From a virus: a DNA stretch of 64,000 nucleotides. Below are positions 1-34,086 of the stretch, piece by piece (the first letter of the stretch is position 1; every line of letters starts with the position of its first letter). The DNA lies in the IMG/VR virus record IMGVR_UViG_3300021963_000030. The stretch is one strand, 5' to 3'. The notes below the pieces were generated by a model. The model was not told the origin of the DNA, made no database searches, and saw only the letters and a program-made list of their open reading frames with translations. Position numbers and translations under genes: made by a program.

Positions 1-585
1 GATGCGTTCCTTAAGTTTGTCCACATTGTGTGTTTTCCACCTTCCATAGACGTTTCTGCTATGAATCCAATCATAATTTGGAGGTCCAACAAGACTGACA
101 CTATAGTTCGGCATTAGTGCGATATCCACATAATTGTCTCCTTGATATAGAAAACCAGTGGCTTGATAAATGGTTCCAGCATGACCAACCTCGCTATCAG
201 CATAACTCAAAATACACTTAATTTGAGGATATTCTGTGTTCAAATGTCTAAAACTTTCGGCTATACAGAAACTTTCTATGTTGCCACCATGACCGTCTTC
301 TATCCATAATCTGGTCAATTCAAAGACGTTATCGTTGGTCAATAGTGGACTAATACTGGTGCTGGAATTACGTCCTACAGCGTTACCATATACAAGAACT
401 CCAATCAATTTACTGTCAAAACCGCCGAAGAATGTGCTTTCTATGTAGTCTTTGGTATACACACCGTATGCTACAGAACAACTGGTCCACTTGTGTGTAT
501 AGTGGTTCTTTTCAATCAAATTACGTGCTACCGATTTGTTGATCGGTTTCAAATAAATTAATGATGTGTCACAATATTTTGACAT
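1..585 (-). CDS. Mom-like DNA adenine-modification acetyltransferase (GNAT fold); 3' end runs off the window
   Basis: Not in the ORF track. Translated by hand from ATG at 585: MSKYCDTSLIYLKPINKSVARNLIEKNHYTHKW...FELTRLWIEDG...ILSYADSEVGHAGTIYQATGFLYQG. It carries the ELxRL and SYAD-x3-GH-x-G-x-IYQA motifs of the Mu Mom family and is open to position 1. Confidence 0.75.
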   Translation of the reverse strand, partial: MSKYCDTSLIYLKPINKSVARNLIEKNHYTHKWTSCSVAYGVYTKDYIESTFFGGFDSKLIGVLVYGNAVGRNSSTSISPLLTNDNVFELTRLWIEDGHGGNIESFCIAESFRHLNTEYPQIKCILSYADSEVGHAGTIYQATGFLYQGDNYVDIALMPNYSVSLVGPPNYDWIHSRNVYGRWKTHNVDKLKERI

Positions 586-640
586 AATAGTATCATAAAT
601 GAGAGTGGTGAAATACACAAGTTTTTATAGTGACGATGGA

Positions 641-2197: not shown

Positions 2198-3502
2198 ATG
2201 GTAAAACTAATAGACATATTGGTAGAAAATCCAGACACGGTGTATTATAAGAAAAAGACTTATAATTACAACACTCCTGCGAACAAGTGTGCTTTCTTTA
2301 TTTACAAGGATAAAAAGACAAAGAAAGAGACTACGTTTGGATACAGTATTATCAAGAGGGAATTCTATTGCACCAATCCCGATGTGTTAAAAGAAATCAA
2401 AGAGTTGGAGAATGCACCCAAAATAAAAATGGGTTCTTCTGCCGATGATAACAGTCGATATTGGGCCCAGCGTGGTATAGAAGACATTAAAAATAGAAAC
2501 AACGGTGGTGGTCATTTAGCATTAGAAAACATACTATCTGGATTGGGTCGTTGGGTTACTGACGATGATCTCACTTTAAAGGGTAGAATATTTGAAGTGG
2601 ATGACACAGTTGATACTAGTCCTAAAACTGGTTCACCAAATTTAGATATACAGATCGAATCTACCATACCCAGTGGCAAAGCTATCATTGTAACCTTCTG
2701 GTCGTATAACAGAGATAATGTAGCACCATGGAAAGATCAAATAGATCATGTTGTTGAATTCAATAACTTTAAACCAGAAGAATGTCTGTATGAGTTGGGT
2801 AGTAGGGTGATGACATTTAGTGAGTTGTATGGTGGTAAAGAAGAACCCAAGAAGGAACCAACACCATCGACACCTAAACCACAATCTAATGATAGTGAGT
2901 CTGCAAAGTATTTTAAAGTTGGAGACAGAGTAAAATTGAAAGGTATGAAGATCTTTGGTGATGTTGTATCTATGGATGGCAATAATATCACTATAAAAAT
3001 AACTGACACCGATATGCCCACAGTTGCACCAAAAGATGTTGAGAAAACTATTTCTTACGTATTTTTGGAACCTGATAATACGCCAGCTGGATTATCATTA
3101 GAGAAAGTTATTGATGATAAGACACAAGAGTTTGTTGAAAAAAGAGGAAAACTTCATACAACAGGAGCGAAATTTACGCCTGCTGAAAAGGCTAATTTAG
3201 AAAAAGAAGTAGATAGTTTAGAAATCGAATTAAAAATGTTAAACAACTACTTGACGAACGGCGTGAAGATTTATACAGACGAATTGAAAAATTTAGTGAA
3301 TCGTTCTGTTCAACGTAAATTACACGATAAAGAAAAAGAAAAGCTTGACAGATACAGTTTAGCAGCTCAGGCTGAGAAACAGTATGGCATGCCGATTGCG
3401 CAAATACGTCAAAAATACAGAGGTGTGCCTTTGGATCAATTGGTAAAGAAAGAACATTTAATCCGTGAAATTGTTAGAAAATATGTTACTAAACGAAAAT
3501 AG
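2198..3502 (+). CDS. Multidomain hypothetical protein with KOW/SH3-like segment; putative head-internal protein
   Basis: Start moved to ATG 2198 (MVKLIDILVE) just after the upstream stop at 2193. Contains FKVGDRVKLKGMKIFGDVVSMDGNNITIKI (KOW-like) and a Pro-rich linker. Confidence 0.5.
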   Translation: MVKLIDILVENPDTVYYKKKTYNYNTPANKCAFFIYKDKKTKKETTFGYSIIKREFYCTNPDVLKEIKELENAPKIKMGSSADDNSRYWAQRGIEDIKNRNNGGGHLALENILSGLGRWVTDDDLTLKGRIFEVDDTVDTSPKTGSPNLDIQIESTIPSGKAIIVTFWSYNRDNVAPWKDQIDHVVEFNNFKPEECLYELGSRVMTFSELYGGKEEPKKEPTPSTPKPQSNDSESAKYFKVGDRVKLKGMKIFGDVVSMDGNNITIKITDTDMPTVAPKDVEKTISYVFLEPDNTPAGLSLEKVIDDKTQEFVEKRGKLHTTGAKFTPAEKANLEKEVDSLEIELKMLNNYLTNGVKIYTDELKNLVNRSVQRKLHDKEKEKLDRYSLAAQAEKQYGMPIAQIRQKYRGVPLDQLVKKEHLIREIVRKYVTKRK

Positions 3503-3998
3503 ACACGTTCAAAAAGGATGTCTAATGGCACAAGTGAGTCCTACTTATGGACCTCACGTTATTAGGCTTGGTAGAACCGCAATACCTCCTCAAATACTAT
3601 ATACCGATCCAAACGATCCTACGTATGGTTATGATGACGAACCACATGTTACTCTAAAATATGGCTTTGAGCCTGATTTGGATAGACTAAATGTTGCTCG
3701 TATATTAAAGGGTATCGGGCCATTTAATGTGGTTCTTAGAGCACTTAATTTGTTTGAAAATGACAAATTTGATGTGGTAAAGTTTGAGGTGGAAAAGTGT
3801 CCTATCTTAACAGAATTGAGACGTAGATGTGATGGATATCCTAACAGTGATAGTTATCCAGACTACAAACCTCATATGACCCTAGCTTATGTGAAGAAGG
3901 GCAGTTTCCCACATAAACGTGATAATCTTAATATAGCTTTACCAATTACAAGATTCAAATATAGTGGACCAAACGGAAAATACTTTATTAACCTATGA
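3465..3998 (+). CDS. 2H phosphoesterase (2'-5' RNA ligase / Acb1-like superfamily)
   Basis: Two HxT motifs, EPHVTLKYG and KPHMTLAYV, about 80 aa apart. Start is either GTG 3465 or ATG 3483. Confidence 0.8.
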   Translation: MKLLENMLLNENRHVQKGCLMAQVSPTYGPHVIRLGRTAIPPQILYTDPNDPTYGYDDEPHVTLKYGFEPDLDRLNVARILKGIGPFNVVLRALNLFENDKFDVVKFEVEKCPILTELRRRCDGYPNSDSYPDYKPHMTLAYVKKGSFPHKRDNLNIALPITRFKYSGPNGKYFINL

Positions 3999-4498
3999 TC
4001 AAATTTAAAGATATACTCAAAGAAGTTGCTAACGCCGATATTAATCAAATTGCCTCTTCTCTAGAATTTAAACCAGTAACCAAACAAAAGTTGGTGTATA
4101 AATACGTAGAAGACGGTAAGCCTGGTGAAATGCCTCCGATGACATACACTAAGGCTACGGTTCAACAGCCTGTTGTTACCGTTACTACCGATGGTAAGGA
4201 GACACAAAATACGGCAGAAGTGGGTGACATCATTTTCAGTGGTGCTACCGGCGAAAACTATGTAATCAAATCAGCTAAGTTACCAAAATTATATACTGGT
4301 AATGTTGGTGGTGATATCTATCCAGAACAGTCTCCAAGACAAGTTGCATTGTATACCGGAGAACCTGTGACATTCAAAGCTCCGTGGGGAGAAGATATGA
4401 TTATCAAACCAGGTGACTATTTGGTCAAAGATCCAGCTAATACTGGTTATTATAGAATTGCTAAAGTAGAATTTGAAAAGACATATAATCCTCTATGA
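3995..4498 (+). CDS. PGDYG-family-like protein with N-terminal targeting motif
   Basis: MIKFKDILKE start; duplicated GDII...GENYVIK and PWGEDMIIKPGDYLV...YRIAKVEFEKTY motifs; ATGA overlaps at both ends. Confidence 0.6.
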   Translation: MIKFKDILKEVANADINQIASSLEFKPVTKQKLVYKYVEDGKPGEMPPMTYTKATVQQPVVTVTTDGKETQNTAEVGDIIFSGATGENYVIKSAKLPKLYTGNVGGDIYPEQSPRQVALYTGEPVTFKAPWGEDMIIKPGDYLVKDPANTGYYRIAKVEFEKTYNPL

Positions 4499-5493
4499 TC
4501 AAGTTGATGGATTTATTGAAAGAAGGTGGTAAACTATTTGGTAGTAGAGCCAGTAGAGTTACTACTTCTGAGATGAACAGTATTTTTGATGAACTCAAGA
4601 ATCAACTGGGTAATGACTTTAGCAAGTTTGAGTTGAGTAAAGCACTACCATCCAAACAAGATCACGGTGATATTGATATTGTGTTGACTGGATCGTCTGG
4701 TGATATCAAGAACACGTTGTTATCTAATTTGGGTAATAAGGTGAAGGATTATAGTCGTAACGGAAATATCTATAGTGTTCTTTACAAGTCTGATTTGGGT
4801 AAGGATGTTCACGTAGACTTTTTGTATGCGGATACCGACGATGACTTTGACGCACAAAAGACTTATTTAGCTCTAGGAGACTTTAGTGGTATATTGGGTG
4901 TAATGGCCAGACAAAATGGTTACAAGTATGCTACTACAGGCTTTCAAAAGATTTATGTAGACAAGAGTGGTAGACATCACGATATACTAATAACCAAGAA
5001 TCTAAAAGACGGTTTGAAGATATTGGGTTACGGTGATGTATTAAACACATATGACAATATTCAGAACAATGATGATGTTGTGAAGTTTATTAGTAGCAGT
5101 CCATTGTTTGACAGTGACAACTATAAAGGTCAAACTATGAATCATAGTGATCGTAAGAGAGTCAGATCTGGTAGACCTAGCGCTGATTATATCCGTAAGT
5201 CATTAATAGGTTTAAATAAACATAGAACCATAGATGATCCAGATTATTTCTTGAAGAAGTTGTTTCCAGACAAGTATCAAGCTTATTTGGATAAGATCAA
5301 AGAAATAGAATCGTTTACCCCAGTCAAATCCAAATATGGTGGTGAATGGATTATGCAAAATTTTAATGTCAAACCTGGGCCAGTATTGGGTAAAATCAAA
5401 CAATTCTGGACACAAAAGTATGGCGATCAATTAGATAATGTCCCAGAAGATCAATTACGTAGCGACACTGATATGTATATTAAGTCTATATAA
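4495..5493 (+). CDS. Pol-beta superfamily nucleotidyltransferase (PolX/CCA-like) with N-terminal targeting motif
   Basis: MIKLMDLLKE start; catalytic signature HGDIDIV plus third Asp in VHVDFL; C-terminal NVKPGPVLGKIK resembles the tail of CCA/poly(A) polymerases. Confidence 0.7.
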   Translation: MIKLMDLLKEGGKLFGSRASRVTTSEMNSIFDELKNQLGNDFSKFELSKALPSKQDHGDIDIVLTGSSGDIKNTLLSNLGNKVKDYSRNGNIYSVLYKSDLGKDVHVDFLYADTDDDFDAQKTYLALGDFSGILGVMARQNGYKYATTGFQKIYVDKSGRHHDILITKNLKDGLKILGYGDVLNTYDNIQNNDDVVKFISSSPLFDSDNYKGQTMNHSDRKRVRSGRPSADYIRKSLIGLNKHRTIDDPDYFLKKLFPDKYQAYLDKIKEIESFTPVKSKYGGEWIMQNFNVKPGPVLGKIKQFWTQKYGDQLDNVPEDQLRSDTDMYIKSI

Positions 5494-5541
5494 GGACAAA
5501 CTTTGCTTTTATATTAAATGACGGTATGTATGATTTTTAAA

Positions 5542-5549
5542 TATTTATA
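5542..5549 (+). promoter_or_regulatory. TATTTAT late-promoter-like motif
   Basis: tatttat, then 8 nt, then ATG(5557). Confidence 0.45.
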
Positions 5550-5556
5550 TTAAACT

Positions 5557-8500
5557 ATGCCGAATAATATTATCATAACGCCTGGAAATAGAGAAATTAG
5601 TTTTCAAGATGGGTCTAACCCCGCAAGAAAATTAACAATTACAGGAAGTAATCTTTCATATGAATCAACAATAAGTGCGAGTAATTTTTATACACACAAT
5701 AGTAGTGGGAGATTTTATGGAAGTGCATCATATGCTGCGACCGCGAGTTATGCCGCTATATATTATAGCGGTAGTGTTGTTAGTTCTTCATATGCGGTGA
5801 CTGCTTCTTATGCACTAAATGGTGGTGGCGGCGGAACAAACTTAGTTACGGGATCAACATATCCAATAACAAGTAGCTACAGTATAAATGCAATTAGTGC
5901 TTCATACATTCCTACAAGTGCAAATATTACCGCAAGTTTAGCAGAAGACAGTATTTCTTCTTCTTATGCAGAGACGGCAAAAAGTGCAAGTTATGCTTTA
6001 ACTGCTTCGTATGCTTTGAACGGTGGAGGTGGCGGCCACAATGTAGTATTGGTCACAGGCAGTATAGCGACTCAGACAATCTTATATGATGTTGTTACTG
6101 GACAAGAGAACGTGATTTCGTCCGTTGGTGGCGCCATTGATTTATCACTAAATAAATGGAGTGTTTCTGTTCTAGAAGAGTGGGATGATGTGAGTGGTGA
6201 TCCATATTATGCAAGTTGTAGTTTATTGTTACATTGTAATGGAACCGACAATTCTATTTCATTTTCAGACAGCGGACCTAATAGTTTAACGGTTACATCA
6301 AACGGAGGCGCCAAAATAGTATCGGCTATTAACAAATTTGGTAGCGGAAGCGGATTCTTTGATGGAGTCAACGATTATCTCAGCGTTCCAAATAGTGTTG
6401 GTTTTAATTTTGGAACAGGAGATTTTACTATTGAATGTTGGATTCGTTCTTCAGATGTATCTGCTGCGAGACAACGAGGATTTTTTCAAACGTCAACTTC
6501 CCCTATAGGGTTAGCTACATATTTCAACACAGGTATAGCAATAATTCAAGGTGCTAATGCTTCTGGAGGACCGCTAAATGGTGGATTGTGTGCAAACGTT
6601 GCGGGGGTCAATGTGGGAAGCAACGCTGCATCAATAACAGCAAATACTTGGCATCATATTGCGCTTGTAAGACTGTCTGGAACTTCATCGTTGTATGTAG
6701 ATGGAACATCTATTGCATCTGTAATAACTCCGGGAAATTGTTCAGGAACATATGCGGCAGTTGGTGGATATTATAATACTTCATTTTTACATAGTGGTTA
6801 CATAGATGAACTTAGAATTCTGAAGGGGGTTGCTAGATACACAGGTAGTTTCACGCCACCAACAACTGAATTTGAAAATATCGCATATACTCAATATACA
6901 ACAAACTATATAGCCACTGTCGGAGGACTAAATGATACTGGCTCTGACTATGGTGTTCAAAAAATAAATAATAGTTCTCTTAAGATTAGAAAGATGTCGA
7001 ACACCAGTCAGCCTGTATCTGGGTCTCAAGCACTTAGTAACACTGTTGATAGAGTTTATGTTAATGTATTGGATTACACAAATGTAACATCAGCATCGAA
7101 TTCTACAAGCGCATCATATGCTCTAACCTCTTCATATGCTGGTTTGTCGCAAACTGCATCATATGTTAATTTAGCTCGTAGTGCTTCGTATGTTAGTCTT
7201 GCAAAAAGTGCTTCGTATGTTAATCTAGCTCGTAGTGCAAGTTATTATAGTGGAAATGTGGCAACCGCTTCTTACTCACCTTCTTCTGGTAATTCTATAA
7301 GTGCAAGTTATGCTTTAACTGCTTCGTATGCTTTGAACGGTGGTGGCGGCGGACACAATGTAGTATTGGTCACAGGCAGTATAGCAACCCAAACAATCTT
7401 ATATGATGTTGTTACTGGGCAAGAGAACACAATCACGGGTATCGATTTATCATTAAATAAGTGGAGTGTTTCTGTTCTGGAAGAGTGGGAATATACCACC
7501 GGCGACCCGTATTATGCAAGTTGTAGTTTATTACTACACTGTAACGGCACTAATAATTCGACAACATTCTCAGATAGCGGACCATATAACTTGACTGTTA
7601 CTTCGGTTGGTGGCGCAAAAATAGCATCAGCTATTAACAAATTCGGCAGTGGAAGCGGATTCTTTGATGGAGTCAACGATTATCTTTCTATTCCAGATCA
7701 TCCTGGTTTTAATTTTGGTTCTGGTGATTTTACAGTGGAATGTTGGCTTTATCCAACTGCCCATCCCGCAGTTGTTTATTTATTCGGTCAAACAAATGCT
7801 TCAGACGTTGCTCCTTTTGTTATTGCGCTTTCTAATGGTAGACCAAGTATAGCAGCATCAACAAATGGTTCAACATGGATTGTAAACGCAACGCTTGCAA
7901 CACCGTTAACACTTAATGCTTGGACACATTTAGCAGCAGTTAGATATGGTAATAAATGGAGTGTATATGTAAATGGTGTTGAAAACGTTGTAGCACCATC
8001 AACATCTGGAACTCTTTATGATTCTGTAAATGGGCTCGGAATAGGCGCTGACGGTCCAGGCGCCGGAGTTGTATCATATTATTATAAAGGATATATTGAT
8101 GAATTCAGAGTGTTGAAGGGGGTTGCTAGATATACAGGTAGTTTTACACCACCAACATCGGAATTTGATAATATCGCATATACTCAAACCTTAACAAACT
8201 ATGTAGCCACTGTAGGTGGTTTAAATGATACTGGGTCAGATTATGGTGTTCAAAAAATAAACAACAGTTCTCTTAAAATTAGAAAAATGTCTGACACCAG
8301 TCAACCTGTGTCAGGTTCTCAACCACTTAGTTCTACTGTTGATAGAGTTTATGTTAATGTGTTAGATTATACAAATGTAACGTCGGCATCAAACTCTACA
8401 AGTGCTTCTTATGCTTTGACTGCATCATACGCATCTAATGCTGGCTCTTTTTTGACAACCGGTTCGACATATCCAATAACTGCAAGTTGGAGTAATAATA

Positions 8501-10248
8501 GTGTAACATCTTCATATGTTATTACATCACAAACCGCAAGTTATTATGGCGGCAATGTAATCAGTTCCAGTTACAGTTTAAGTAGTTCGTATGCACCAAC
8601 AAATACAAATATCACTGCAAGTTGGTCGAGTAATGCAATATCATCTAGTTATGCTTTAACTGCTTCATATGTGTCGGGTGGTGGAGGCGGTCACAATGTA
8701 GTATTGGTCACAGGCAGTATAGCGACTCAGACAATACTGTATGATGTTGTTACTGGTCAAGAAAATATTATAACAGGTATTGATTTATCATTAAATAAGT
8801 GGAGTGTTTCTGTTCTGGAAGAGTGGGAATATACAACTGGTGATCCATATTATGCAAGTTGTAGTTTACTATTGCATTGCAATGGCACCAATAACTCAAC
8901 TACATTCTCAGATAGTGGGCCAAATAATTTAACCGTTACTTCGGTTGGGGGAACAAAAATAGCATCAGCTATTTATAAGTTTGGTAGTGGAAGTGCTTTT
9001 TTTGATGGAGTTAATGATTATATTTCCGTTCAAGACAACGCTGGTCTTAATTTTGGATCTGGTGATTTTACAATCGAATACTGGGAATATAGAACTTCGA
9101 CAGCAACTCAAAGTCCAATATTAAGTAGAAATACTGCAGTATATACCCCATATATGGTTGGATGGCGTGATTCTGCGGTAGGCCCTAATCTTGCATTGTA
9201 TATGAGTTCTACTGGAACTAATTGGAATGTCGCTTCAAATGTAAGTATGGGAAGTGTTGTATTTAATGCTTGGACTCATTATGCTGTTACACGACAAGGT
9301 AATACATTTAGAACTTTTCAAAACGGCACACTAATTTCTACATTTACATCGGCAGCTTCATTTCCAGCTGTATCTGGTCCGTTGCAGATAGGTAGATATG
9401 ATACCGTGTATTATTTTAAAGGTGGATATCTCGATGAACTTAGAATTCTAAAAGGTGTTGCTAGATATACAGGTAGTTTCACGCCTCCAACAGCAGAATT
9501 TGAGAATATCGCATACACGCAAAATTTGACAAACTACATGGCCACAGTCGGAGGACTAAATGATACTGGGTCAGATTATGGTGTTCAAAAAATAAACAAC
9601 AGTTCTCTTAAGATTAGAAAGATGTCGAACACCAGTCAGCCTGTGTCAGGTTCTCAACCACTTAGTAACACTGTTGATAGAGTTTATGTTAATGTATTGG
9701 ATTACACAAATGTAACATCCGCTTCTAATTCTACAAGTGCTTCTTATGCTTTGACATCAAGTTATTATGGCGGATCTGTTGAGACTGCTAGTTTTGCTTC
9801 TAACTCTGTTAGTAGTTCTTATGCTCTGACCTCTTCATATACACCGATTTATTTACTTGAAGCCTATGCTAGTGAGACTTATACTTTACCAGGTAGTTTT
9901 ACCGAAGATCCTTGTAGATACAGTTATATAAGCAATACAGTCAATGTATCAAGCAGTTGGTTCAACACAAGCACATATACATTCACACCACAAAAAGCAG
10001 GCTACTGGGAAATCACTGCCACTTATGATGTTTATAGAAATGCTGAGGCAAGTATGGTAATTAAGAAAAATACCAACATTGTAGCTTCAGCAGGATCTTT
10101 TAATTCGGTAGCTCAACAAATAACAAAAATTGTCTATCTGAATGGTTCAACTGATTATATAAAAATTTTCAATTATGGCGGAGCAGCACTTTCAAGATCA
10201 CAATATGACGCAAGGTCTTGGTTCCAAGCAAGATGGGTAGGCGAATAA
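5557..10248 (+). CDS. Large tail/head fibre protein with three LamG (concanavalin-A-like) lectin modules, S/T-rich SASYA linkers and a C1q-like C-terminus
   Basis: Three copies of SLLLHCNGT...FGSGS.FFDGVNDY...GDFT.E.W...W.H.A.VR...GY.DE.RI.KGVARYTGSF; many S(A/S)SYA.TASY repeats. Confidence 0.75.
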   Translation: MPNNIIITPGNREISFQDGSNPARKLTITGSNLSYESTISASNFYTHNSSGRFYGSASYAATASYAAIYYSGSVVSSSYAVTASYALNGGGGGTNLVTGSTYPITSSYSINAISASYIPTSANITASLAEDSISSSYAETAKSASYALTASYALNGGGGGHNVVLVTGSIATQTILYDVVTGQENVISSVGGAIDLSLNKWSVSVLEEWDDVSGDPYYASCSLLLHCNGTDNSISFSDSGPNSLTVTSNGGAKIVSAINKFGSGSGFFDGVNDYLSVPNSVGFNFGTGDFTIECWIRSSDVSAARQRGFFQTSTSPIGLATYFNTGIAIIQGANASGGPLNGGLCANVAGVNVGSNAASITANTWHHIALVRLSGTSSLYVDGTSIASVITPGNCSGTYAAVGGYYNTSFLHSGYIDELRILKGVARYTGSFTPPTTEFENIAYTQYTTNYIATVGGLNDTGSDYGVQKINNSSLKIRKMSNTSQPVSGSQALSNTVDRVYVNVLDYTNVTSASNSTSASYALTSSYAGLSQTASYVNLARSASYVSLAKSASYVNLARSASYYSGNVATASYSPSSGNSISASYALTASYALNGGGGGHNVVLVTGSIATQTILYDVVTGQENTITGIDLSLNKWSVSVLEEWEYTTGDPYYASCSLLLHCNGTNNSTTFSDSGPYNLTVTSVGGAKIASAINKFGSGSGFFDGVNDYLSIPDHPGFNFGSGDFTVECWLYPTAHPAVVYLFGQTNASDVAPFVIALSNGRPSIAASTNGSTWIVNATLATPLTLNAWTHLAAVRYGNKWSVYVNGVENVVAPSTSGTLYDSVNGLGIGADGPGAGVVSYYYKGYIDEFRVLKGVARYTGSFTPPTSEFDNIAYTQTLTNYVATVGGLNDTGSDYGVQKINNSSLKIRKMSDTSQPVSGSQPLSSTVDRVYVNVLDYTNVTSASNSTSASYALTASYASNAGSFLTTGSTYPITASWSNNSVTSSYVITSQTASYYGGNVISSSYSLSSSYAPTNTNITASWSSNAISSSYALTASYVSGGGGGHNVVLVTGSIATQTILYDVVTGQENIITGIDLSLNKWSVSVLEEWEYTTGDPYYASCSLLLHCNGTNNSTTFSDSGPNNLTVTSVGGTKIASAIYKFGSGSAFFDGVNDYISVQDNAGLNFGSGDFTIEYWEYRTSTATQSPILSRNTAVYTPYMVGWRDSAVGPNLALYMSSTGTNWNVASNVSMGSVVFNAWTHYAVTRQGNTFRTFQNGTLISTFTSAASFPAVSGPLQIGRYDTVYYFKGGYLDELRILKGVARYTGSFTPPTAEFENIAYTQNLTNYMATVGGLNDTGSDYGVQKINNSSLKIRKMSNTSQPVSGSQPLSNTVDRVYVNVLDYTNVTSASNSTSASYALTSSYYGGSVETASFASNSVSSSYALTSSYTPIYLLEAYASETYTLPGSFTEDPCRYSYISNTVNVSSSWFNTSTYTFTPQKAGYWEITATYDVYRNAEASMVIKKNTNIVASAGSFNSVAQQITKIVYLNGSTDYIKIFNYGGAALSRSQYDARSWFQARWVGE
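5983..9760 (+). repeat. Three long intragenic direct repeats of about 1.1 kb (approx. 5983-7130, 7300-8420, 8647-9760)
   Basis: 44-nt identical block agtgcaagttatgctttaactgcttcgtatgctttgaacggtgg at 5983 and 7300; flanks are near-identical while LamG cores diverge. Confidence 0.9.
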
Positions 10249-10274: not shown

Positions 10275-11444
10275 ATGATACGATTCAAAGACATCATTTC
10301 TGAACTTAGACGCAATCCAGAGTTAAATCCCAAAATTGCCGCATTGGATGCGTTGAGTAAGTATAAGGATGATCCTTCTTATTTTATCACGTTCACCACC
10401 ATTGAAAAAGTTGGGCTAAACCCAAGAAGTCCATTTTCTACACCTGTTGGTTTGTATGCGTATAAACTCAAGGATGTGTATGGTGAATTAGAGAGTAAGA
10501 ATTATTTGTTTGGTGTAGACCGTCCATTTGTCAACGTCATACAATTGACCACAGATCGTGTATTAGATTTGGAAAATTACAACAACAAAAGTTCTGACTT
10601 ACAAAAACTACGAAAGATCTATGAGAGTGAAACTGGTAAGTCATTTGATGATGTGTTGAAAGAGTTTGACAGTAATAATCATTTGTTGTATCCAGTTGAT
10701 ACTGATGGTAAGTATGTGTATGGTTTGATGAATTTTATATCAAACGGAGTTGAGGGTAGAACTGGACCAGTAAAGAAGTCAATGGTCTATTTCAACAAGT
10801 TGCTTAGAAAAATGGGTTATGATGTGGTAATTGATCGAACTGGAACGGTTCATTTATTACAACCATCTCAGGCTGTTTTCTTGGTTCCCTCGTCGTATAA
10901 ATTTGTCGAGAAGATTATCAATAAGTCTTATTCTGGAAACGAGCCTGTATCAGCAAACACTTACTGGCACGTTGGTGTTAACCCCACAGTTGACAATGTT
11001 ATCTTAAAACGTGAAGGAGATACTTACAAAGTATTATTGATCAAACGTAAGAACAAAGTGGAATTCGGTAAGTGGGCATTGCCTGGCGGGTTTATTGATA
11101 CAAATGCTAAAAAAGGTGAGCCTTGGCAGCCTGGTAGAGAAACTCCAAGACAAGCTGCTATCAGAGAGTTGCACGAAGAAACTGGATTATACATTGAGTC
11201 TATTTCAAATTTGTTGAAACAGATTGGTGTGTATGAAGGTAATCATCGTGACCCAAGAGATACAAAAACTTCATGGTCAAAGTCTCATGCATTTGGTCTT
11301 GTATTGCCAGATGGGTTTAATACAAGTTCCGTAAAAGCAAGAGATGATGCTTCCGATGCACAGTGGTTTGATATAAAAGCACTTCCTACACTAGCATTTG
11401 ACCATTCCACAATTATTGGAGACGCACTACCTAAATTGATATAG
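10275..11444 (+). CDS. Fusion: N-terminal putative ADP-ribosyltransferase-fold domain plus C-terminal Nudix hydrolase (ADP-ribose pyrophosphatase type)
   Basis: Start moved to ATG 10275 (MIRFKDIISE). Nudix box WALPGGF...ETPRQAAIRELHEETGL, RDPR, DDASDAQWF, LAFDH as in NadM/NrtR-type Nudix domains. The N-domain call is weaker (TPVGLYAY; MGYDVVID...QPSQAVF). Confidence 0.75.
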   Translation: MIRFKDIISELRRNPELNPKIAALDALSKYKDDPSYFITFTTIEKVGLNPRSPFSTPVGLYAYKLKDVYGELESKNYLFGVDRPFVNVIQLTTDRVLDLENYNNKSSDLQKLRKIYESETGKSFDDVLKEFDSNNHLLYPVDTDGKYVYGLMNFISNGVEGRTGPVKKSMVYFNKLLRKMGYDVVIDRTGTVHLLQPSQAVFLVPSSYKFVEKIINKSYSGNEPVSANTYWHVGVNPTVDNVILKREGDTYKVLLIKRKNKVEFGKWALPGGFIDTNAKKGEPWQPGRETPRQAAIRELHEETGLYIESISNLLKQIGVYEGNHRDPRDTKTSWSKSHAFGLVLPDGFNTSSVKARDDASDAQWFDIKALPTLAFDHSTIIGDALPKLI

Positions 11445-12395: not shown

Positions 12396-13196
12396 ATGAA
12401 CTTACTTGAATTACTAAAAAAACACAGATTGATAGAAGGTGTAGATGATCCGTCTACACTCAAATGTATATTCATGGCTGGTGGGCCTGGTAGTGGCAAA
12501 AGCACCGTGGCAAGAGAATTGTTCGATTTACCAGATGATTCGTCTGTTAACCAGTATGGTTTGAAGGTTATCAATAGTGACAATGAGTTTGAACAGATGC
12601 TTCATCAAATGAAGATTTCTACAGACTTGAGTAAGTTGAGTCCTGAGGAGTTTGAACGATTGACGGTTGGTCCACAATCTACTAGAGAAAAAGCAAAGAG
12701 AATAACCAGAAAGAAATTGGACATGTATAGAAGGGCCAAGTTGGGTCTCATCATAGATGGAACTGGTGATAGTATACAATCTATTCAGTTGAAGAAACGT
12801 GTTATGGAACAACACGGATATGATTGTTATATGGTATTTGTTAATACTAGTTTGCAAGTTGCAATGGAACGAAATGCGAAAAGAGATCGTAAGATACCTG
12901 AGGATTTATTGACACAGATGTGGTTTAGTTGTCAAAACAATTTGGGTCATTTTCAAAATATCTTTGGAAACAATTTTAAGATTGTTGATCGAACAAAGAG
13001 TGGAGAACCAATTGATAAAAGTGTGTTAAGGAGTGTAATTAATTTCTTGAAAAGTCCAATCAGAAACCCAATTGGTAGACGTTGGATTCAAAACTATTAT
13101 ACTGATGTCAAGAGGGTTGATGGTGCTACTCGGTCTGATGACGATTCTGATATTGAGCCACCTTCTATTGAACCGATGCGTCCTAGAAGAGTATGA
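12396..13196 (+). CDS. P-loop kinase (zeta-toxin / polynucleotide-kinase-like)
   Basis: Walker A MAGGPGSGKS, INSD, LIIDGTG, lid motif AMERNAKRDRKIPE; N-terminus MNLLELLKKHRLIE. Confidence 0.75.
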   Translation: MNLLELLKKHRLIEGVDDPSTLKCIFMAGGPGSGKSTVARELFDLPDDSSVNQYGLKVINSDNEFEQMLHQMKISTDLSKLSPEEFERLTVGPQSTREKAKRITRKKLDMYRRAKLGLIIDGTGDSIQSIQLKKRVMEQHGYDCYMVFVNTSLQVAMERNAKRDRKIPEDLLTQMWFSCQNNLGHFQNIFGNNFKIVDRTKSGEPIDKSVLRSVINFLKSPIRNPIGRRWIQNYYTDVKRVDGATRSDDDSDIEPPSIEPMRPRRV

Positions 13197-13459: not shown

Positions 13460-13590
13460 ATGAAAAGGTCCAAAATACTCTTCAGAAGATTCTTAAAGCC
13501 AAGAAGTTGAAAGAAGAGTCAATTAAAAAACAACAACAAAAAAAGGTTGTTGTGTCAGACTATAGGTTGCTAGCACAATCATTTCTATGA
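13456..13590 (+). CDS. Small basic hypothetical protein (44 aa)
   Basis: Not in the ORF track: MNEKVQNTLQKILKAKKLKEESIKKQQQKKVVVSDYRLLAQSFL; ATGA overlaps with both neighbours. Confidence 0.55.
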   Translation: MNEKVQNTLQKILKAKKLKEESIKKQQQKKVVVSDYRLLAQSFL

Positions 13591-14315
13591 TCAAAAAACT
13601 AAGAGTATTTGATTTTGATGATACACTTTTTCATACATCTGGTAAAGTAATACTTACAAAAGGTGATGGAAAGGTGATCAGAATGTCAGCAGCTGAGTAT
13701 GCTGTGTATCCCCCACAACCGGGTGACAAGTTTGATTATTCTGAATTTCAAGCAGTTGTAGATCCCGTTGTTATTAGGTCTGTGGCAAAACGTTTCTATA
13801 AGATTGTGACTGCCGGTAATCAAGGTCGATTAACGGTAATATTAACTGCTCGTGGACCATCAAGTATTCCTCATATACAAGAAGTTTTACAAAAATACTT
13901 TAGGGTTGATATTCCAGTAATAGCTGTTGGAACTAGTGATCCTATGGCTAAAGCTAATTGGATTAAGGATAAAGTTGAAAACGAAGGATACAATGATGTG
14001 TTCTTTATCGATGATAGTCCCAAGAATATTAAAGCAGTTTATACTACAATTAAAAATCTTCCGATTAAGTATAAAATTGTTGATTTGAGTGGTCCTAGAA
14101 AACTTGAGGGCAATAATTTGACTGTTGGTGACGCAGATGTGTTATCTGAATCGTCCAGTGGTGAAATAAACAATGAATTTTCTGGTGATATTCTTGACAA
14201 TGTTAGGGTTCAATTGAATCAAGACGGTGATATTAGTTTGGTTGAATTGAGATTTAAAAATAGTTATAAATCCCTAATAATTGAAGGTGATTATTTGACC
14301 ATGACAATAGAGTAG
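13587..14315 (+). CDS. HAD-superfamily phosphatase (RNA-repair-type HAD)
   Basis: Motif I FDFDDTL, motif II ILTAR, motif III K (PMAKANW), motif IV FIDDSPKN. Confidence 0.75.
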   Translation: MIKKLRVFDFDDTLFHTSGKVILTKGDGKVIRMSAAEYAVYPPQPGDKFDYSEFQAVVDPVVIRSVAKRFYKIVTAGNQGRLTVILTARGPSSIPHIQEVLQKYFRVDIPVIAVGTSDPMAKANWIKDKVENEGYNDVFFIDDSPKNIKAVYTTIKNLPIKYKIVDLSGPRKLEGNNLTVGDADVLSESSSGEINNEFSGDILDNVRVQLNQDGDISLVELRFKNSYKSLIIEGDYLTMTIE

Positions 14316-14343
14316 ATTTTAGCACTAATATCGAATCACTCGA

Positions 14344-14351
14344 TATTTATA
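14344..14351 (+). promoter_or_regulatory. TATTTAT late-promoter-like motif
   Basis: tatttat, then 5 nt, then ATG(14356). Confidence 0.45.
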
Positions 14352-15594: not shown

Positions 15595-16167
15595 ATGGCA
15601 GCACCAGTAACACCACAGTGGCCACAGCAAAATCCCGCTTTTCCTCAATACTGGACGAACGGTCGTAAAGATATTGGTATATACGGCACAAACTATTTGC
15701 CTGGTAGATATTTTAGCAGTCGTGACATGAACTTACTTGGTTCTGTCAATGCTGAATTGGTTGGTGATATTATTGAATGTGTTGTTCAATTGTTTAAGGT
15801 CGCAGTTACCGAGACAAAGGTCAACATTTATGGTGAGTCTTCATCCGAAACGGGCAAGGCGTTTTATCCGGGTATTAATATGACCGCTTTGATTCAACGT
15901 GAAGACATTACTGGAGACGACAATCAAGGATTTGGACCAGATCGCAATCAAAGTGTAGTATATAAGTTTCGTGAACGTGATTGTATCATCACTGGTTTCT
16001 TTCCAGAAATTGGTGATATCGTATTATACAATGAACGTTTCTATGAAGTTGACAATGTAATTCAAGAACAATTTTTAGGTGGTCATCCAGATAAGTCTTG
16101 GAGCTTTATCTGCAATACACACTACAGCAGACTTAGTAAGTTGAATGTAGTAGAAAGACAAACATAA
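15595..16167 (+). CDS. Neck / head-closure protein (T4 gp14-like)
   Basis: T..NIYGES, FPEIGDIVLYNERFYEV; synteny between gp13-like and gp15-like genes. Confidence 0.6.
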   Translation: MAAPVTPQWPQQNPAFPQYWTNGRKDIGIYGTNYLPGRYFSSRDMNLLGSVNAELVGDIIECVVQLFKVAVTETKVNIYGESSSETGKAFYPGINMTALIQREDITGDDNQGFGPDRNQSVVYKFRERDCIITGFFPEIGDIVLYNERFYEVDNVIQEQFLGGHPDKSWSFICNTHYSRLSKLNVVERQT

Positions 16168-19956: not shown

Positions 19957-21117
19957 ATGGTCCAAAGTAAATACAAAATTTATGTTGATATGGATGGGGT
20001 TCTTTCAGACTGGGAAAAACAGTTTGAAAGATTGTTTGGAGTTCCAGTATCAACCTATGAAGCAGAACACGGCAAAGATAAACGTTACGAATTGGTTCAC
20101 AAGAACAGTCCAAACTTTTATGCTACAATGCCATGGATGAAAGACGGCAAAGTATTGTATGACTTTATCAAAGAGTTTCCAACAGAAATACTTAGTCACG
20201 CAACGGATTCAGCATGTAAAGAAGGAAAAGAGATTTGGTTAAAAGCACATAACGTAACGTTGAAACCAAACTTAGTTCCCAATAGAGAAGATAAAGCAAA
20301 GTTTGCAACTCCAGAATCAATATTGATAGATGACCGTGAAGACAATGTAAATGAGTTTGTTCAAGCAGGTGGTATCGGAATACTACACACCAATGCGACA
20401 GATACAATCAACAAACTCAAAGAAATCCTCGGAGTCAAACAATCATTTAGAATATACAACAGTATTCTGAACCCAGAGTTATGGGAAGATGATGCACTCA
20501 AGCCAGACGTTCTAAGTAAAATGTTGAAGATTGCCACATCATTTTACAAAGATACTGAATTGACTGCTCCAATTGAAGACATATATTTCTTGGGAAGCAC
20601 AGCTGGTTACAACTGGACTCCAACAAGTGATATTGATCTACACATTCTTATTGACTTTTCTAAGATCGATGAAAACAAAGAATTAGTCAAGAAGTTGGTT
20701 GACGGTTACAAAAACAAATGGAACGAACAACACGACATCAGTATAGGCAATCACCCAGTTGAAGTTTATATACAAGATGTCAATGACGTAAATCGTAGTC
20801 AAGCAGTATACAGTATTCTTCATAACAAGTGGATAAAAAAACCATCATATGAAGACATACAAATCGACAAAGAGTCAATAAAAACCAAATACAAAGACTT
20901 GGTGACCAAAATAAACAAAGCTGTCGAAGAACAAAATTTATCTAAAATGAAAGAGTTGGTTCAACGTATTTACAACATGCGTGAAGCCGGTTTGAGTTCA
21001 GGTGGTGAATACAGCACAGAAAACCTTGTATTCAAACTTCTTAGAGCAAGTGGATTCATCAGTAAACTAAGAATAAACATCACAAATCTTACTGATAAAG
21101 AACTCAACAAATTATAA
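19957..21117 (+). CDS. Fusion of HAD 5'(3')-nucleotidase and Pol-beta-type nucleotidyltransferase
   Basis: N-domain YVDMDGVLSD...ILS...K...LIDDREDNV; C-domain FLGSTAGYN...SDIDLH...VEVYIQD plus helical EYSTENLVFKLLR; TATTTAT 5 nt upstream. Confidence 0.75.
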   Translation: MVQSKYKIYVDMDGVLSDWEKQFERLFGVPVSTYEAEHGKDKRYELVHKNSPNFYATMPWMKDGKVLYDFIKEFPTEILSHATDSACKEGKEIWLKAHNVTLKPNLVPNREDKAKFATPESILIDDREDNVNEFVQAGGIGILHTNATDTINKLKEILGVKQSFRIYNSILNPELWEDDALKPDVLSKMLKIATSFYKDTELTAPIEDIYFLGSTAGYNWTPTSDIDLHILIDFSKIDENKELVKKLVDGYKNKWNEQHDISIGNHPVEVYIQDVNDVNRSQAVYSILHNKWIKKPSYEDIQIDKESIKTKYKDLVTKINKAVEEQNLSKMKELVQRIYNMREAGLSSGGEYSTENLVFKLLRASGFISKLRINITNLTDKELNKL

Positions 21118-21745: not shown

Positions 21746-22537
21746 ATGAACAATAAAGTAACCGTGCTACTACCCGGCGGTTTCAAACCACCTCATGCCG
21801 GGCATTTGGGATTAGCTAACAAATTTGCTAGTCGATCTGATGTTGGTAAAGTAATAGTGATGGTAGGACCAAGTGAACGTGATGGAGTTAACCGTCAACA
21901 GAGTGTAGCAATATGGAACCTTTTGCCCACAAACCCCAAGGTAGAGGTTGTGCCGGTCAACGATGACAGTCCTATGAACGCAGCATTTGGATATGTTTTC
22001 AATCTACCAAAAGACAGCAATGAAACAATTGCTTTAGCAGCCAGCGCAAAGAGTCCAGAAGATGCTAAACGTAGTAAAATATTCAAAGCAGCTGTAGACC
22101 GTTACAAAACCAAACCAACGAAGGACGGAGCTACTGCACCTCAAGGTGTGACAGTAATTGAAATGACCGATGATGCTCCTACTATTTATCAAGGTAGAGA
22201 CGATGATAAAAACGGTCAAAGTATTAGTGCTAGCACATTGAGAGGTGATTTGGCAAACGGAAACTTTCAGAATTTTCAGACCAATTACCCAGGCGTAAAA
22301 ACTGGTGTGGTCAAGAGTATTTATAACATTTTAACCAAAAAGAAATCTATGGACGAAACAAAAAAACAAAAGATTAAAGCATTGATCAAGAAAATCCTCA
22401 GAGAAGAAGACAGTTTCATGGATGCTTTGGTAGGACCAGAATCTAAGTTTAAAGACGCAATCAATAAGATTAATGTTAGAGCTGGTATTTTAACAAAAGC
22501 TGCTCAAGATGCTCAAAAGAAGATAAAGCCAAAATAA
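21746..22537 (+). CDS. HIGH-motif (cytidylyl/adenylyl-transferase, NMNAT/PPAT-like) nucleotidyltransferase
   Basis: LLPGGFKPPHAGH; ISASTLR (SxS/T-xxR motif); TATTTAT 4 nt upstream. Confidence 0.7.
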   Translation: MNNKVTVLLPGGFKPPHAGHLGLANKFASRSDVGKVIVMVGPSERDGVNRQQSVAIWNLLPTNPKVEVVPVNDDSPMNAAFGYVFNLPKDSNETIALAASAKSPEDAKRSKIFKAAVDRYKTKPTKDGATAPQGVTVIEMTDDAPTIYQGRDDDKNGQSISASTLRGDLANGNFQNFQTNYPGVKTGVVKSIYNILTKKKSMDETKKQKIKALIKKILREEDSFMDALVGPESKFKDAINKINVRAGILTKAAQDAQKKIKPK

Positions 22538-26275: not shown

Positions 26276-26280
26276 TCTGA

Positions 26281-26288
26281 TATTTATA
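26281..26288 (+). promoter_or_regulatory. TATTTAT late-promoter-like motif
   Basis: tatttat, then 5 nt, then ATG(26293). Confidence 0.45.
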
Positions 26289-34071: not shown

Positions 34072-34086
34072 ACATATTTATAATTG

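Follow-up and report, generated by a model that had tools for sequence, protein, structure and literature searches.

A capsid-targeting-like tag, an ADP-ribosyltransferase-like domain and a Nudix domain in one probable phage effector

What kind of protein results when a Nudix hydrolase is joined, among the fibre and tail genes of a phage, to a domain that no standard model recognises, and where would such a protein act? The question is raised by a gene at 10275..11444 (+ strand) in 64,000 nucleotides of DNA from a large uncultured phage, IMG/VR virus record IMGVR_UViG_3300021963_000030, the whole of which is called the window here. The gene encodes a protein of 389 amino acids (aa) plus a stop codon, designated P0001. 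A preliminary description, made from the sequence alone, read it as a tagged fusion of an ADP-ribosyltransferase (ART) fold with a Nudix domain, possibly an Alt-like injected writer of ADP-ribose marks with a built-in pyrophosphatase. The analysis reported below suggests that the gene probably encodes a three-part phage effector, composed of a capsid-targeting decapeptide, an ART-fold domain and an ADP-ribose-type Nudix domain, that is directed at nicotinamide adenine dinucleotide (NAD) or ADP-ribose and packaged in the phage head. Computation in this analysis shows the gene and the type of its Nudix domain, the ART-like fold of the N-terminal domain, the family to which that domain belongs with the habits of this family, the pattern of the tag, and the presence of a protease in relatives.

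Domains of P0001

The limits of the gene follow from the open reading frame (ORF) list with its translation and from 25 full-length homologues of the same architecture, found by metagenome search at 58-99% identity, every one of which begins at the equivalent of the ATG at 10275 with MI[KR][LF]K. A longer reading that is initiated by TTG at 10218 was rejected, given that it overlaps the preceding gene and is used by 0 of the 25 homologues. The window holds no paralogue of P0001, and RNPE-type motifs appear in it once.

The C-terminal domain, at aa 238-385 (10986..11429, +), is a Nudix hydrolase of the NrtR/NadM/NUDT9 (ADP-ribose) type by Pfam, NCBIfam, and PDB sequence and fold matches. The Pfam NUDIX model matches aa 238-377 with an E-value of 2.8e-16. 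The Nudix box at aa 272-304 (11088..11186, +) follows the consensus GX5EX7REUXEEXGU with its catalytic Glu residues, and the stretch E289-x7-R297-E298-L-H-E301-E302-T-G304-L is invariant in 19 homologues; alignment to 3i9x reveals an 11-residue insertion, AKKGEPWQPGR, between the Gly and E289. The best NCBIfam models for this part are the ADP-ribose (ADPR)-responsive repressor NrtR and the bifunctional nicotinamide mononucleotide (NMN) adenylyltransferase/Nudix protein NadM, both with scores far under the equivalog cut-offs, and P0001 is therefore placed in the clade without an assignment of orthology. NUDT9, NrtR and NadM are among the nearest solved proteins in a PDB sequence search. In a full-length AlphaFold2 (AF2) model the Nudix part has a pLDDT of 80-95, and its best Foldseek matches are 2fml, the NrtR-ADPR complex 3gz8, NUDT9, the NUDT9-H domain of the TRPM2 chanzyme, and NadM (E 1e-11 to 1e-8). 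The earlier reading of a clear ADP-ribose-type Nudix thus holds at the level of the clade, with ADP-ribose as the predicted substrate.

For the N-terminal part, a search of the whole protein with Pfam, PHROG and NCBIfam yields no model that matches aa 1-235, with hmmscan at E<=1 returning only NUDIX, and a PDB sequence search with a profile of the family described below gives chance matches only. An ART-superfamily-like domain at aa 27-222 (10353..10940, +) is indicated by an AF2 model and by its fold and language-model neighbours. The model (pLDDT 85.3, pTM 0.81) was built from an alignment of 24 distant relatives, at 23-37% identity, taken from the metagenome scan. It predicts the split beta-sheet of an ART core, with strands at aa 36-41, 59-64, 85-91, 96-98, 184-187, 199-202 and 208-215, together with a helical insertion at aa 101-180 (10575..10814, +) that is made of helices 105-120, 124-138, 144-160 and 166-179. 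No part of the domain is less conserved than this insertion (63.5% versus 77% for the core), which matches unrelated helical bundles in the fold search.

Foldseek against the PDB places first the cyanophage A4 pre-ejectosome chain 9k3a_B (E 3.6e-5), followed by AcrIF11, MbcT, Xre-RES, tankyrases, ParT, diphtheria-toxin homologues and PARPs. VIA-align, which is independent of Foldseek, gives A4 chain B a Z-score of 8.8 over 168 residues. ART-fold chains make up about 18 of its best 50 rows and align over aa ~32-220 with Z-scores of 4.4-5.9, and the others cover only the helical insert at aa ~100-180. The scores are 5.9 for MbcT, 5.7 for NatT, 5.2 for ParT, 5.1 for RCD1/PARP1, 4.9 for AcrIF11, 4.5 for Tpt1 and 4.4 for diphtheria toxin, and the PARP chains among the fold matches are PARP1/2/3/4/13/16. 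When Foldseek is directed at BFVD, the annotated matches are "ART-PolyVal-like" or "PolyVal ADP-ribosyltransferase" proteins (E 6e-6 to 1e-3), and the domain is also matched with large polyvalent proteins, a MuF fusion and Pf-WMP3 gp26 (A5HL40). A fold-free language-model search of the ESM Atlas leads to viral clusters with PF18760 (ART-PolyVal) or PF26151 (AcrIF11) in 20-29% of their members.

Several of these lines, all of them computational, share one AF2 model, and the assignment is made because a single superfamily recurs through the match list rather than on the strength of single Z values. On this basis the domain very probably belongs to the ART superfamily. The preliminary description had reached the same fold from short motifs, all of which are present: YFITF(T) at aa 36-41, (S)TPVGLYAY at 55-63, VIQL at 88-91, VLDL at 96-99, MGYDVVID at 180-187 and QPSQAVFLVP at 196-205. 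The AlphaFold and Foldseek check bears that proposal out with recurrent ART chains, and it is joined by VIA-align, BFVD, the language model, the interleaving of genes on one contig and a weak local profile match.

The candidate active-site segment, GTVHLLQPSQAVFLVP, spans aa 190-205 (10842..10889, +) and contains H193, Q196 (Glu in the family), Q199 and V204. In hhalign it is this segment that matches the LG[FY]DG...VFxP stretch of ART-PolyVal, at E 4e-4 to 1e-3. Residue frequencies were taken from 241 distant family members, and the window's clade comprises 30 members. Near-invariant among the 241 are K45 (99%), G47 (99%), P50 (99%), T56 (97%), P57 (100%), Y61 (99%), Y63 (98%), D187 (99%), H193 (94%), E196 (97%), Q199 (97%) and N216 (92%). 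Position 204 is S, D, T or H in the family, and V204 aligns to Asp in one ART-PolyVal-like ORF. Mapping of an active-site triad (H-Y-[EDQ] or R-S-E), done from secondary structure and a forced alignment, points tentatively to T39, Y61, Q196 and Q199 in the window protein; Y61 and Y63 lie on strand 2, strand 5 opens with Q199, and position 196 lies three residues earlier. With so many near-invariant polar residues, the domain looks functional as far as its sequence can tell. The window's clade also departs from the family by P64K, P78L, W149Y and W173F. Within that clade the ART core is more conserved than the Nudix domain (77% versus 70%), and therefore the ART-like domain is under selection, with its chemistry probably altered.

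The N-domain family and its tag

Right after the putative cleavage site of P0001 lies the family signature, RRNPELNPK, at aa 12-20 (10308..10334, +). R12 is kept in 93% of the 241 members and N14, P15, N18 and P19 in 81-88%, figures that carry a bias, because the motif served as the seed both for the family profile and for some of the loci sampled. Searched with the profile, 1.84 billion cluster representatives yield 3,800 proteins at E<=1e-3, 1,620 of them at E<=1e-30, and the domain mostly starts at residue 1 of proteins of 210-520 aa. The signature motif has 200 matches in IMG/VR, and a scan of 185,579 GTDB species genomes for it found one 1-kb contig of a metagenome-assembled genome, a motif-seeded result that divergent cellular copies could escape. 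Because of that single contig the family is treated as essentially phage-only. It is a large family without Pfam or PHROG annotation that occurs almost only in phage and metagenome DNA. When the window protein and a typical member, P0036, were compared by tblastn with 50,697 phage records, only Nudix matches or a weak megaphage match were obtained; the family hidden Markov model (HMM) matches nothing in the nearest cultured relatives (Mel-JY01, the immuto phages and LR756508), and a full-text literature search for RRNPE returned nothing relevant.

Behind the constant N-terminal domain the C-termini are hypervariable, such that 290 of them fall into 144 BLAST clusters. The largest cluster consists of DUF4116/HEAT-like KNPSEEVQLAAV repeats, and the commonest partners are either repeat modules (DUF4116, HEAT, Ank) or enzymes (Nudix, GNAT, NMNAT-like CTP_transf_like, HAD). 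Such a pattern would be expected if a constant catalytic head were combined with parts that vary and serve targeting or accessory functions. Members also occur in arrays: nine tandem paralogues at L052:8621-19433, on a 167-kb IMG/VR contig, each have a different C-terminal part, and arrays of three to four are found on contigs L039, L053, L054, L057, L095/L109 and L099/L100, with four on L099. P0119 (2058 aa) contains two family domains, PBECR5, an SLT lytic transglycosylase and a Nudix domain, which is the classical layout of the virion "polyvalent proteins" described by Iyer et al. (PMC5512222). P0121 (837 aa) and one further member of the alignment join the ART-like domain to CTP_transf_like, a domain of NMN-adenylyltransferase type, which links the family to NAD metabolism a second time and independently. 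A relative that is syntenic with the window has, at L077:8942-12187 (+), a gene for a 1081-aa protein with the ART-like domain, the rest of which is homologous to ORF 15595-16167 of the tail-proximal block; homologues of window ORFs 14356, 16171 and 19088 are adjacent.

P0001 begins with the decapeptide MIRFKDIISE (10275..10304, +), which pattern search and comparison with phage T4 identify as resembling a T4-type capsid-targeting sequence (CTS), with I-S-E at residues 8-10. The CTS of T4 is MKTYQEFIAE (PMC8442874). In T4 the decapeptide alone is enough for targeting, which depends on residues 4 and 7, and the protease gp21 cuts after L/I-x-E, with processing dependent on residues 8 and 10 (PMC9026906). 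MIRFKDIISE follows these positional rules, with an aromatic residue at 4, hydrophobic residues at 7 and 8 and Glu at 10. In the AF2 model the tag segment has a pLDDT of ~62 and lies outside the ART core.

When the window is translated in six frames, the pattern M[IV][KR][FL]xD[IL][IL]xE is found only at the starts of + strand ORFs, at 1591, 2198, 3995, 4495 and 10275. The first four are unrelated ORFs with the tag-like starts MIKFNDLLEN (1591-1620), MVKLIDILVE (2198-2227), MIKFKDILKE (3995-4024) and MIKLMDLLKE (4495-4524), and the pattern is kept at the protein level despite synonymous codon differences. The word "tagged" in the preliminary description is thus justified by the restriction of the pattern to five ORF starts and by agreement with the T4 CTS in spacing and in L/I-x-E. 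Together with 10275, the four tagged ORFs form a cluster upstream of the tail module; their contents include a phrog_7595 C-terminus, a PGDYG-like domain and a weak match to a "DNA polymerase" PHROG.

The same signal is seen across the family and in its neighbours. The family logo ahead of RRNPE has Met at -11, F/L at -8, F/Y/I at -5, L/I/V at -4 (133/152), Glu at -2 (138/152) and Ala at -1. Among 1622 neighbour proteins outside the family, 37 carry CTS-like tags, compared with 0 of 1292 in an internal control window, and unrelated tagged neighbours on other contigs start with sequences such as MKTFKQFLIE, MKSFKQFLLE and MIRFKQFLNE. The nearest cultured relatives of the window phage, judged by helicase, are Microcystis phage Mel-JY01 and the Flavobacterium "immuto" phages, which are non-T4 myoviruses. 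A gp21-type protease, Peptidase_S77, is encoded by the syntenic relative G006 (105 bits) and by Mel-JY01, the immuto phages, LR756508 and G003, the last two being records of megaphage size.

Delivery, chemistry and rival explanations

The gene lies within a late fibre and tail block. Upstream, the interval 5541..10248 (+) holds a ATATTTATA motif and a gene for a 1563-aa, fibre-like protein with LamG repeats (three Laminin_G_3 matches, E 3.5e-47). There is no ATATTTATA motif between this gene and 10275, and the two genes are therefore probably co-transcribed. Downstream follow an adaptor-like gene and genes for the tail tube, baseplate hub and baseplate wedge, and the replication and nucleotide genes lie at 36-45 kb. 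The ATATTTATA motif, which we take to be the reverse complement of the T4 late-promoter core, has 13 sites in the window where 1.5 are expected, 12 of them on the + strand (for example 640-648, 1578-1586, 5541-5549, 14343-14351, 26280-26288 and 34074-34082). At the gene starts that were checked it ends 3-12 nucleotides before the ATG, or up to ~25 nucleotides at two sites; its role may be that of a promoter, giving near-leaderless mRNAs, or that of a signal for translation initiation.

For the packaging, cleavage, injection, substrate and biological role of P0001 we infer the following course, as a tentative reading that falls somewhat short of an even chance: the protein is a late-made, CTS-tagged and injected effector in which an ART-derived domain recognises NAD or ADP-ribose chemistry and an ADPR-type Nudix domain cleaves. 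The protein would be made late, along with the fibre and tail genes, and the tag would bring it into the prohead, where a gp21-type protease would trim it after Glu10. The trimmed protein would next be injected along with the DNA, and once in the cell its ART-like domain would recognise NAD+, ADP-ribose, or an ADP-ribosylated or ADP-ribose-derived molecule, and the Nudix domain would then cut the pyrophosphate. In short, the outcome would be a first-strike enzyme against host responses based on NAD or ADP-ribose.

A series of results weighs against this reading. With regard to delivery, genes for a protease, a portal or a capsid protein are absent from the window itself; the family was not found in any cultured phage for which virion proteomics exists; and in P0028 and P0121, where the domain is internal, conservation extends to the tag residues, which could therefore be part of the fold. 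With regard to the fold, no Pfam ART or toxin model matches P0001 at E<=1, the Z-scores of the ART chains are within the range that VIA-align calls common, and profile-profile comparison with ART-PolyVal reaches a probability of just 20-36% over ~40 columns. The ART-PolyVal HMM (PF18760), run on five family-bearing contigs, finds only separate true ART-PolyVal genes and no family member. The full-length AF2 model (pTM 0.52) has no confident interface between the ART-like and Nudix domains. With regard to chemistry, strand 1 has no His, given that position 39 is S in 80%, T in 14% and H in 5% of the family and T in the window protein, and position 196, Glu in 97% of the 241 members, is Gln in 28 of the 30 members of the window's clade. 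These frequencies agree with the early remark that Gln stands where Glu is usually catalytic. The replacement of the family-conserved Glu196 by Gln makes classical writing doubtful for this clade, and from the sequence the domain is expected to be mainly a module for binding or presenting, or one of altered chemistry, rather than a classical transferase.

The alternative that survives best, although it is unlikely, gives the N-terminal domain no enzymatic role: it would be a structural or packaging module, located in the head interior or the ejection apparatus, that is ART-like in fold and carries variable payloads, with the Nudix domain as the sole active part. It is suggested by the best structural match, which is a pre-ejectosome protein (A4 gp27), by the delivery-domain logic of a constant N-terminal part with hypervariable C-terminal parts, and by the loss of the Glu and the absence of the canonical His. 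However, some ten near-invariant polar residues over 241 members suit an active or ligand site rather than a scaffold, and among its partners binding repeats are commoner than payload enzymes. A carrier of 200 aa is also unnecessary, because in T4 the decapeptide alone suffices for targeting (PMC9026906).

Quite improbable is a true writer-trimmer, as the preliminary description proposed, in which the ART-like domain would place ADP-ribose on a host protein or nucleic acid, for the Nudix domain to trim to phosphoribose, with a SidE-like outcome or a mark that macrodomain erasers could not reverse. The part of that proposal that stands is the fusion of an ART-like fold to an ADPR-type Nudix; the writing is doubtful, given Gln196, the lack of a strand-1 His of the ART-PolyVal kind or of an Arg, and the lack of a Pfam ART match. 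Nudix enzymes of the NrtR/NadM/NUDT9 type are known for free ADPR rather than for protein-linked ADP-ribose, and no confident inter-domain geometry is predicted. Writing is favoured by the two clade members that keep Glu196 and by AcrIF11, a small phage ART of the same fold group that is a specific writer (PMC12421852). From the sequence, the writer-trimmer is less likely than a role in binding or degrading NAD or ADP-ribose.

Several nearby genes could suggest RNA repair. A 2H phosphoesterase (2H/LigT-like) at 3465-3998 (+) matches 2_5_RNA_ligase2 (E 5.6e-11) and has weak similarity to the anti-CBASS protein Acb1 (E 2.5e-5), such that its product may be either an RNA end-healing enzyme or a degrader of cyclic-nucleotide signals. 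An AAA_33/Zeta-toxin-like P-loop kinase is encoded at 12396-13196, a DxDxT HAD-like protein at 13587-14315, and an NT5C plus Pol-beta nucleotidyltransferase (NTase) protein at 19957-21117. Homologues of the kinase adjoin family genes on other contigs (L008:39-797, L009:21-800 and L004:1747-2541), as do those of the NT5C/NTase gene, and a homologue of the HAD gene (E 4.6e-10) is fused to a family member at L023:2276-3454 and L104:9926-11104, a Rosetta-stone link. The tag of the window's kinase is weak (MNLLELLKKH), and the homologues in L008 and L009 start with the strong CTS-like tags MIRFKQFLNE and MQRFKSFLHE. RNA end-healing, in which a KptA/Tpt1-like domain removes a 2'-phosphate with NAD+, the Nudix domain disposes of the ADP-ribose cyclic phosphate and the 2H, kinase, HAD and NTase proteins cooperate, is nevertheless very unlikely: besides these genes it can draw on the KptA-Nudix fusion of Bodo saltans virus (PMC9503650) and on mouse Tpt1 among the fold matches (Z 4.5), but the Tpt1 match is weaker and shorter (78 aligned residues) than those to RES, ParT, PARP and AcrIF11, no KptA HMM matches P0001, the window has no RNA ligase that was found, arrays of up to nine paralogues with repeat-type C-termini are ill-suited to a housekeeping repair enzyme, and, because the kinase homologues carry the tag, the co-clustering may mean shared packaging rather than a shared pathway.

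Two further ORFs of the window were noted. Between the tail-tube and baseplate-hub genes, ORF 21746-22537 (+) has a weak match to phrog_395, "cytidyltransferase" (E 3.8e-7, with no stretch that passes alone), the PHROG whose Nudix end matches P0001; judged by this match it may be another NAD-related enzyme within the tail module. At the left edge of the window, 1-618 (-) encodes a Mom-like DNA modification protein (phrog_1384, E 1.5e-36).

The reading of P0001 as an injected enzyme that acts on NAD or ADP-ribose chemistry can be extended to the whole family, with considerable doubt. Taken together, the results could describe a very large new class of CTS-tagged, head-packaged effectors with a constant ART-derived head of catalytic or ligand function, an S/T-Y-(E)xxQ site, hypervariable targeting repeats or accessory enzymes, and tandem arrays of up to nine; the T4 targeting system would then extend far beyond the relatives of T4, as a general means of bringing in such payloads, and the window variant would be a specialised injected destroyer of immune signals or marks derived from NAD or ADP-ribose. 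Head-packaged ARTs and virion-borne Nudix enzymes have been predicted by comparative genomics (PMC5512222, PMC9503650). The present analysis adds a family of ~3,800 clusters outside the Pfam and PHROG models. We know of few head-packaged ARTs or virion-borne Nudix enzymes besides T4 Alt that are linked to a recognisable packaging signal, and a concrete T4-like CTS signal that ends in L/I-x-E is added here, common to the family and to unrelated neighbouring enzymes in phages whose closest cultured relatives, judged by helicase, are non-T4 myoviruses. The natural Glu-to-Gln, Nudix-fused variant offers a direct test case for whether such a domain writes ADP-ribose, binds it or feeds it to a hydrolase. 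If confirmed, the tag could make it possible to recognise, by sequence only, which proteins an uncultured large phage injects.

Comparison with known systems

The closest structural counterpart of the N-terminal domain is A4 gp27 (PDB 9K3A chain B), a virion ejection protein that is physically in the head core and that aligns over 168 residues with a root-mean-square deviation of 5.8; Pf-WMP3 gp26 also matches the domain. In A4, however, the domain lies within a podovirus protein of >1700 aa, its identity to the N-terminal domain is 8%, and the structure paper assigns it no ART function. The ejection protein of A4-like cyanopodophages (9K3A chain B ~1120-1610; A5HL40) appears to hold an ART-PolyVal-like domain that the structure paper does not mention.

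ART-PolyVal is the annotated group with which the family shares most of its habits. Both have an ART-like fold with helical elaboration, are found in phage DNA, including the inside of giant virion polyvalent proteins, and place the domain at the N-terminus ahead of a variable C-terminal tail, with several paralogues per genome or contig. A local segment, LG[YF]DG...VFxP, is common to both: hhalign of the family (271 sequences) against ART-PolyVal (43) aligns 37 columns with an E-value of 3.8e-4 and a probability of 36%, and its comparison of alignment A4 with alignment A6 gives an E-value of 1.1e-3 and a probability of 21%. An alternative register, from a forced global alignment that sets GIIH against YHGT, was non-significant and was dropped in favour of the structurally consistent local match. 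The genes are also interleaved, given that on the complete 295-kb contig G004, to which L053 also belongs, an ART-PolyVal gene at L129:1039-2043 (-), with 92 bits, and a weak one at L130:1462-1917 (-) flank a family member. By eye, the gene on L129 adjoins an NAD-dependent-ligase-like ORF.

The family differs from ART-PolyVal in its lack of a match to the HMM, its CTS-like N-terminus, its own signature (RRNPExNPK, KxGxNP, TPxGxYxYP and GIIHxxEPxQAVF), and the replacement by Ser or Thr of the strand-1 His in YHGT, which is invariant in the VVYHGT of 26 ART-PolyVal sequences. An H-Y-D site has been described in ARTs of the Tox-ART-HYD2 clade in phage polyvalent proteins (Iyer et al. 2017, PMC5512222). 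Because the profile comparison yields only a local match, the family looks like a distant sister of the ART-PolyVal/AcrIF11 group rather than a member of ART-PolyVal. AcrIF11 (PDB 6KYF) is an experimentally validated member of that group, a phage/plasmid mono-ART that ADP-ribosylates Csy1 (PMC12421852). It too is a small phage-borne ART fold, with a Foldseek E-value of 0.046, a VIA-align match over 123 residues and PF26151 in the language-model clusters. Unlike P0001, it is a stand-alone protein of 130-160 aa with neither tag, helical insert nor Nudix domain; it has no sequence match to P0001, in which the counterpart of its catalytic Asp/Glu loop residues was not identified.

The likeness to T4 Alt and the other T4 internal proteins concerns delivery: an N-terminal propeptide with L/I-x-E, a setting among late or structural genes, and a predicted entry into the cell together with the DNA. 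Alt itself is an R-S-E (Alt/VIP2) ART whose propeptide has 7 residues, in P0001 no homology to it was detected, and no Alt-like protein is among the sequence or fold matches, such that P0001 is not a member of that family. The window phage is also no close relative of T4, with a helicase 42% identical to that of Microcystis phage Mel-JY01. Of the preliminary phrase "Alt-like injected", then, the idea of a tagged and injected protein is supported by the CTS-like decapeptide, the gp21-type proteases of relatives and the late context, and membership of the Alt family falls away.

For the C-terminal half, the nearest systems are NrtR, the Nudix part of NadM, and NUDT9. P0001 keeps the REx2EE of the Nudix box intact, and its RDPR and AFDH motifs align with 3i9x and 2fml; it differs in the insertion within the Nudix box and in having an ART-like domain as partner, rather than an NMN adenylyltransferase or a DNA-binding domain. 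Legionella SidE couples an ART, in one polypeptide, to an enzyme that processes the ADP-ribosylated product, and P0001 differs from it in having no phosphodiesterase domain of the SidE type. The KptA-Nudix fusion described in Bodo saltans virus (PMC9503650), whose KptA signature was not detected in P0001, resembles it in overall design, with an ART-fold domain and an enzyme that processes ADP-ribose products in one polypeptide.

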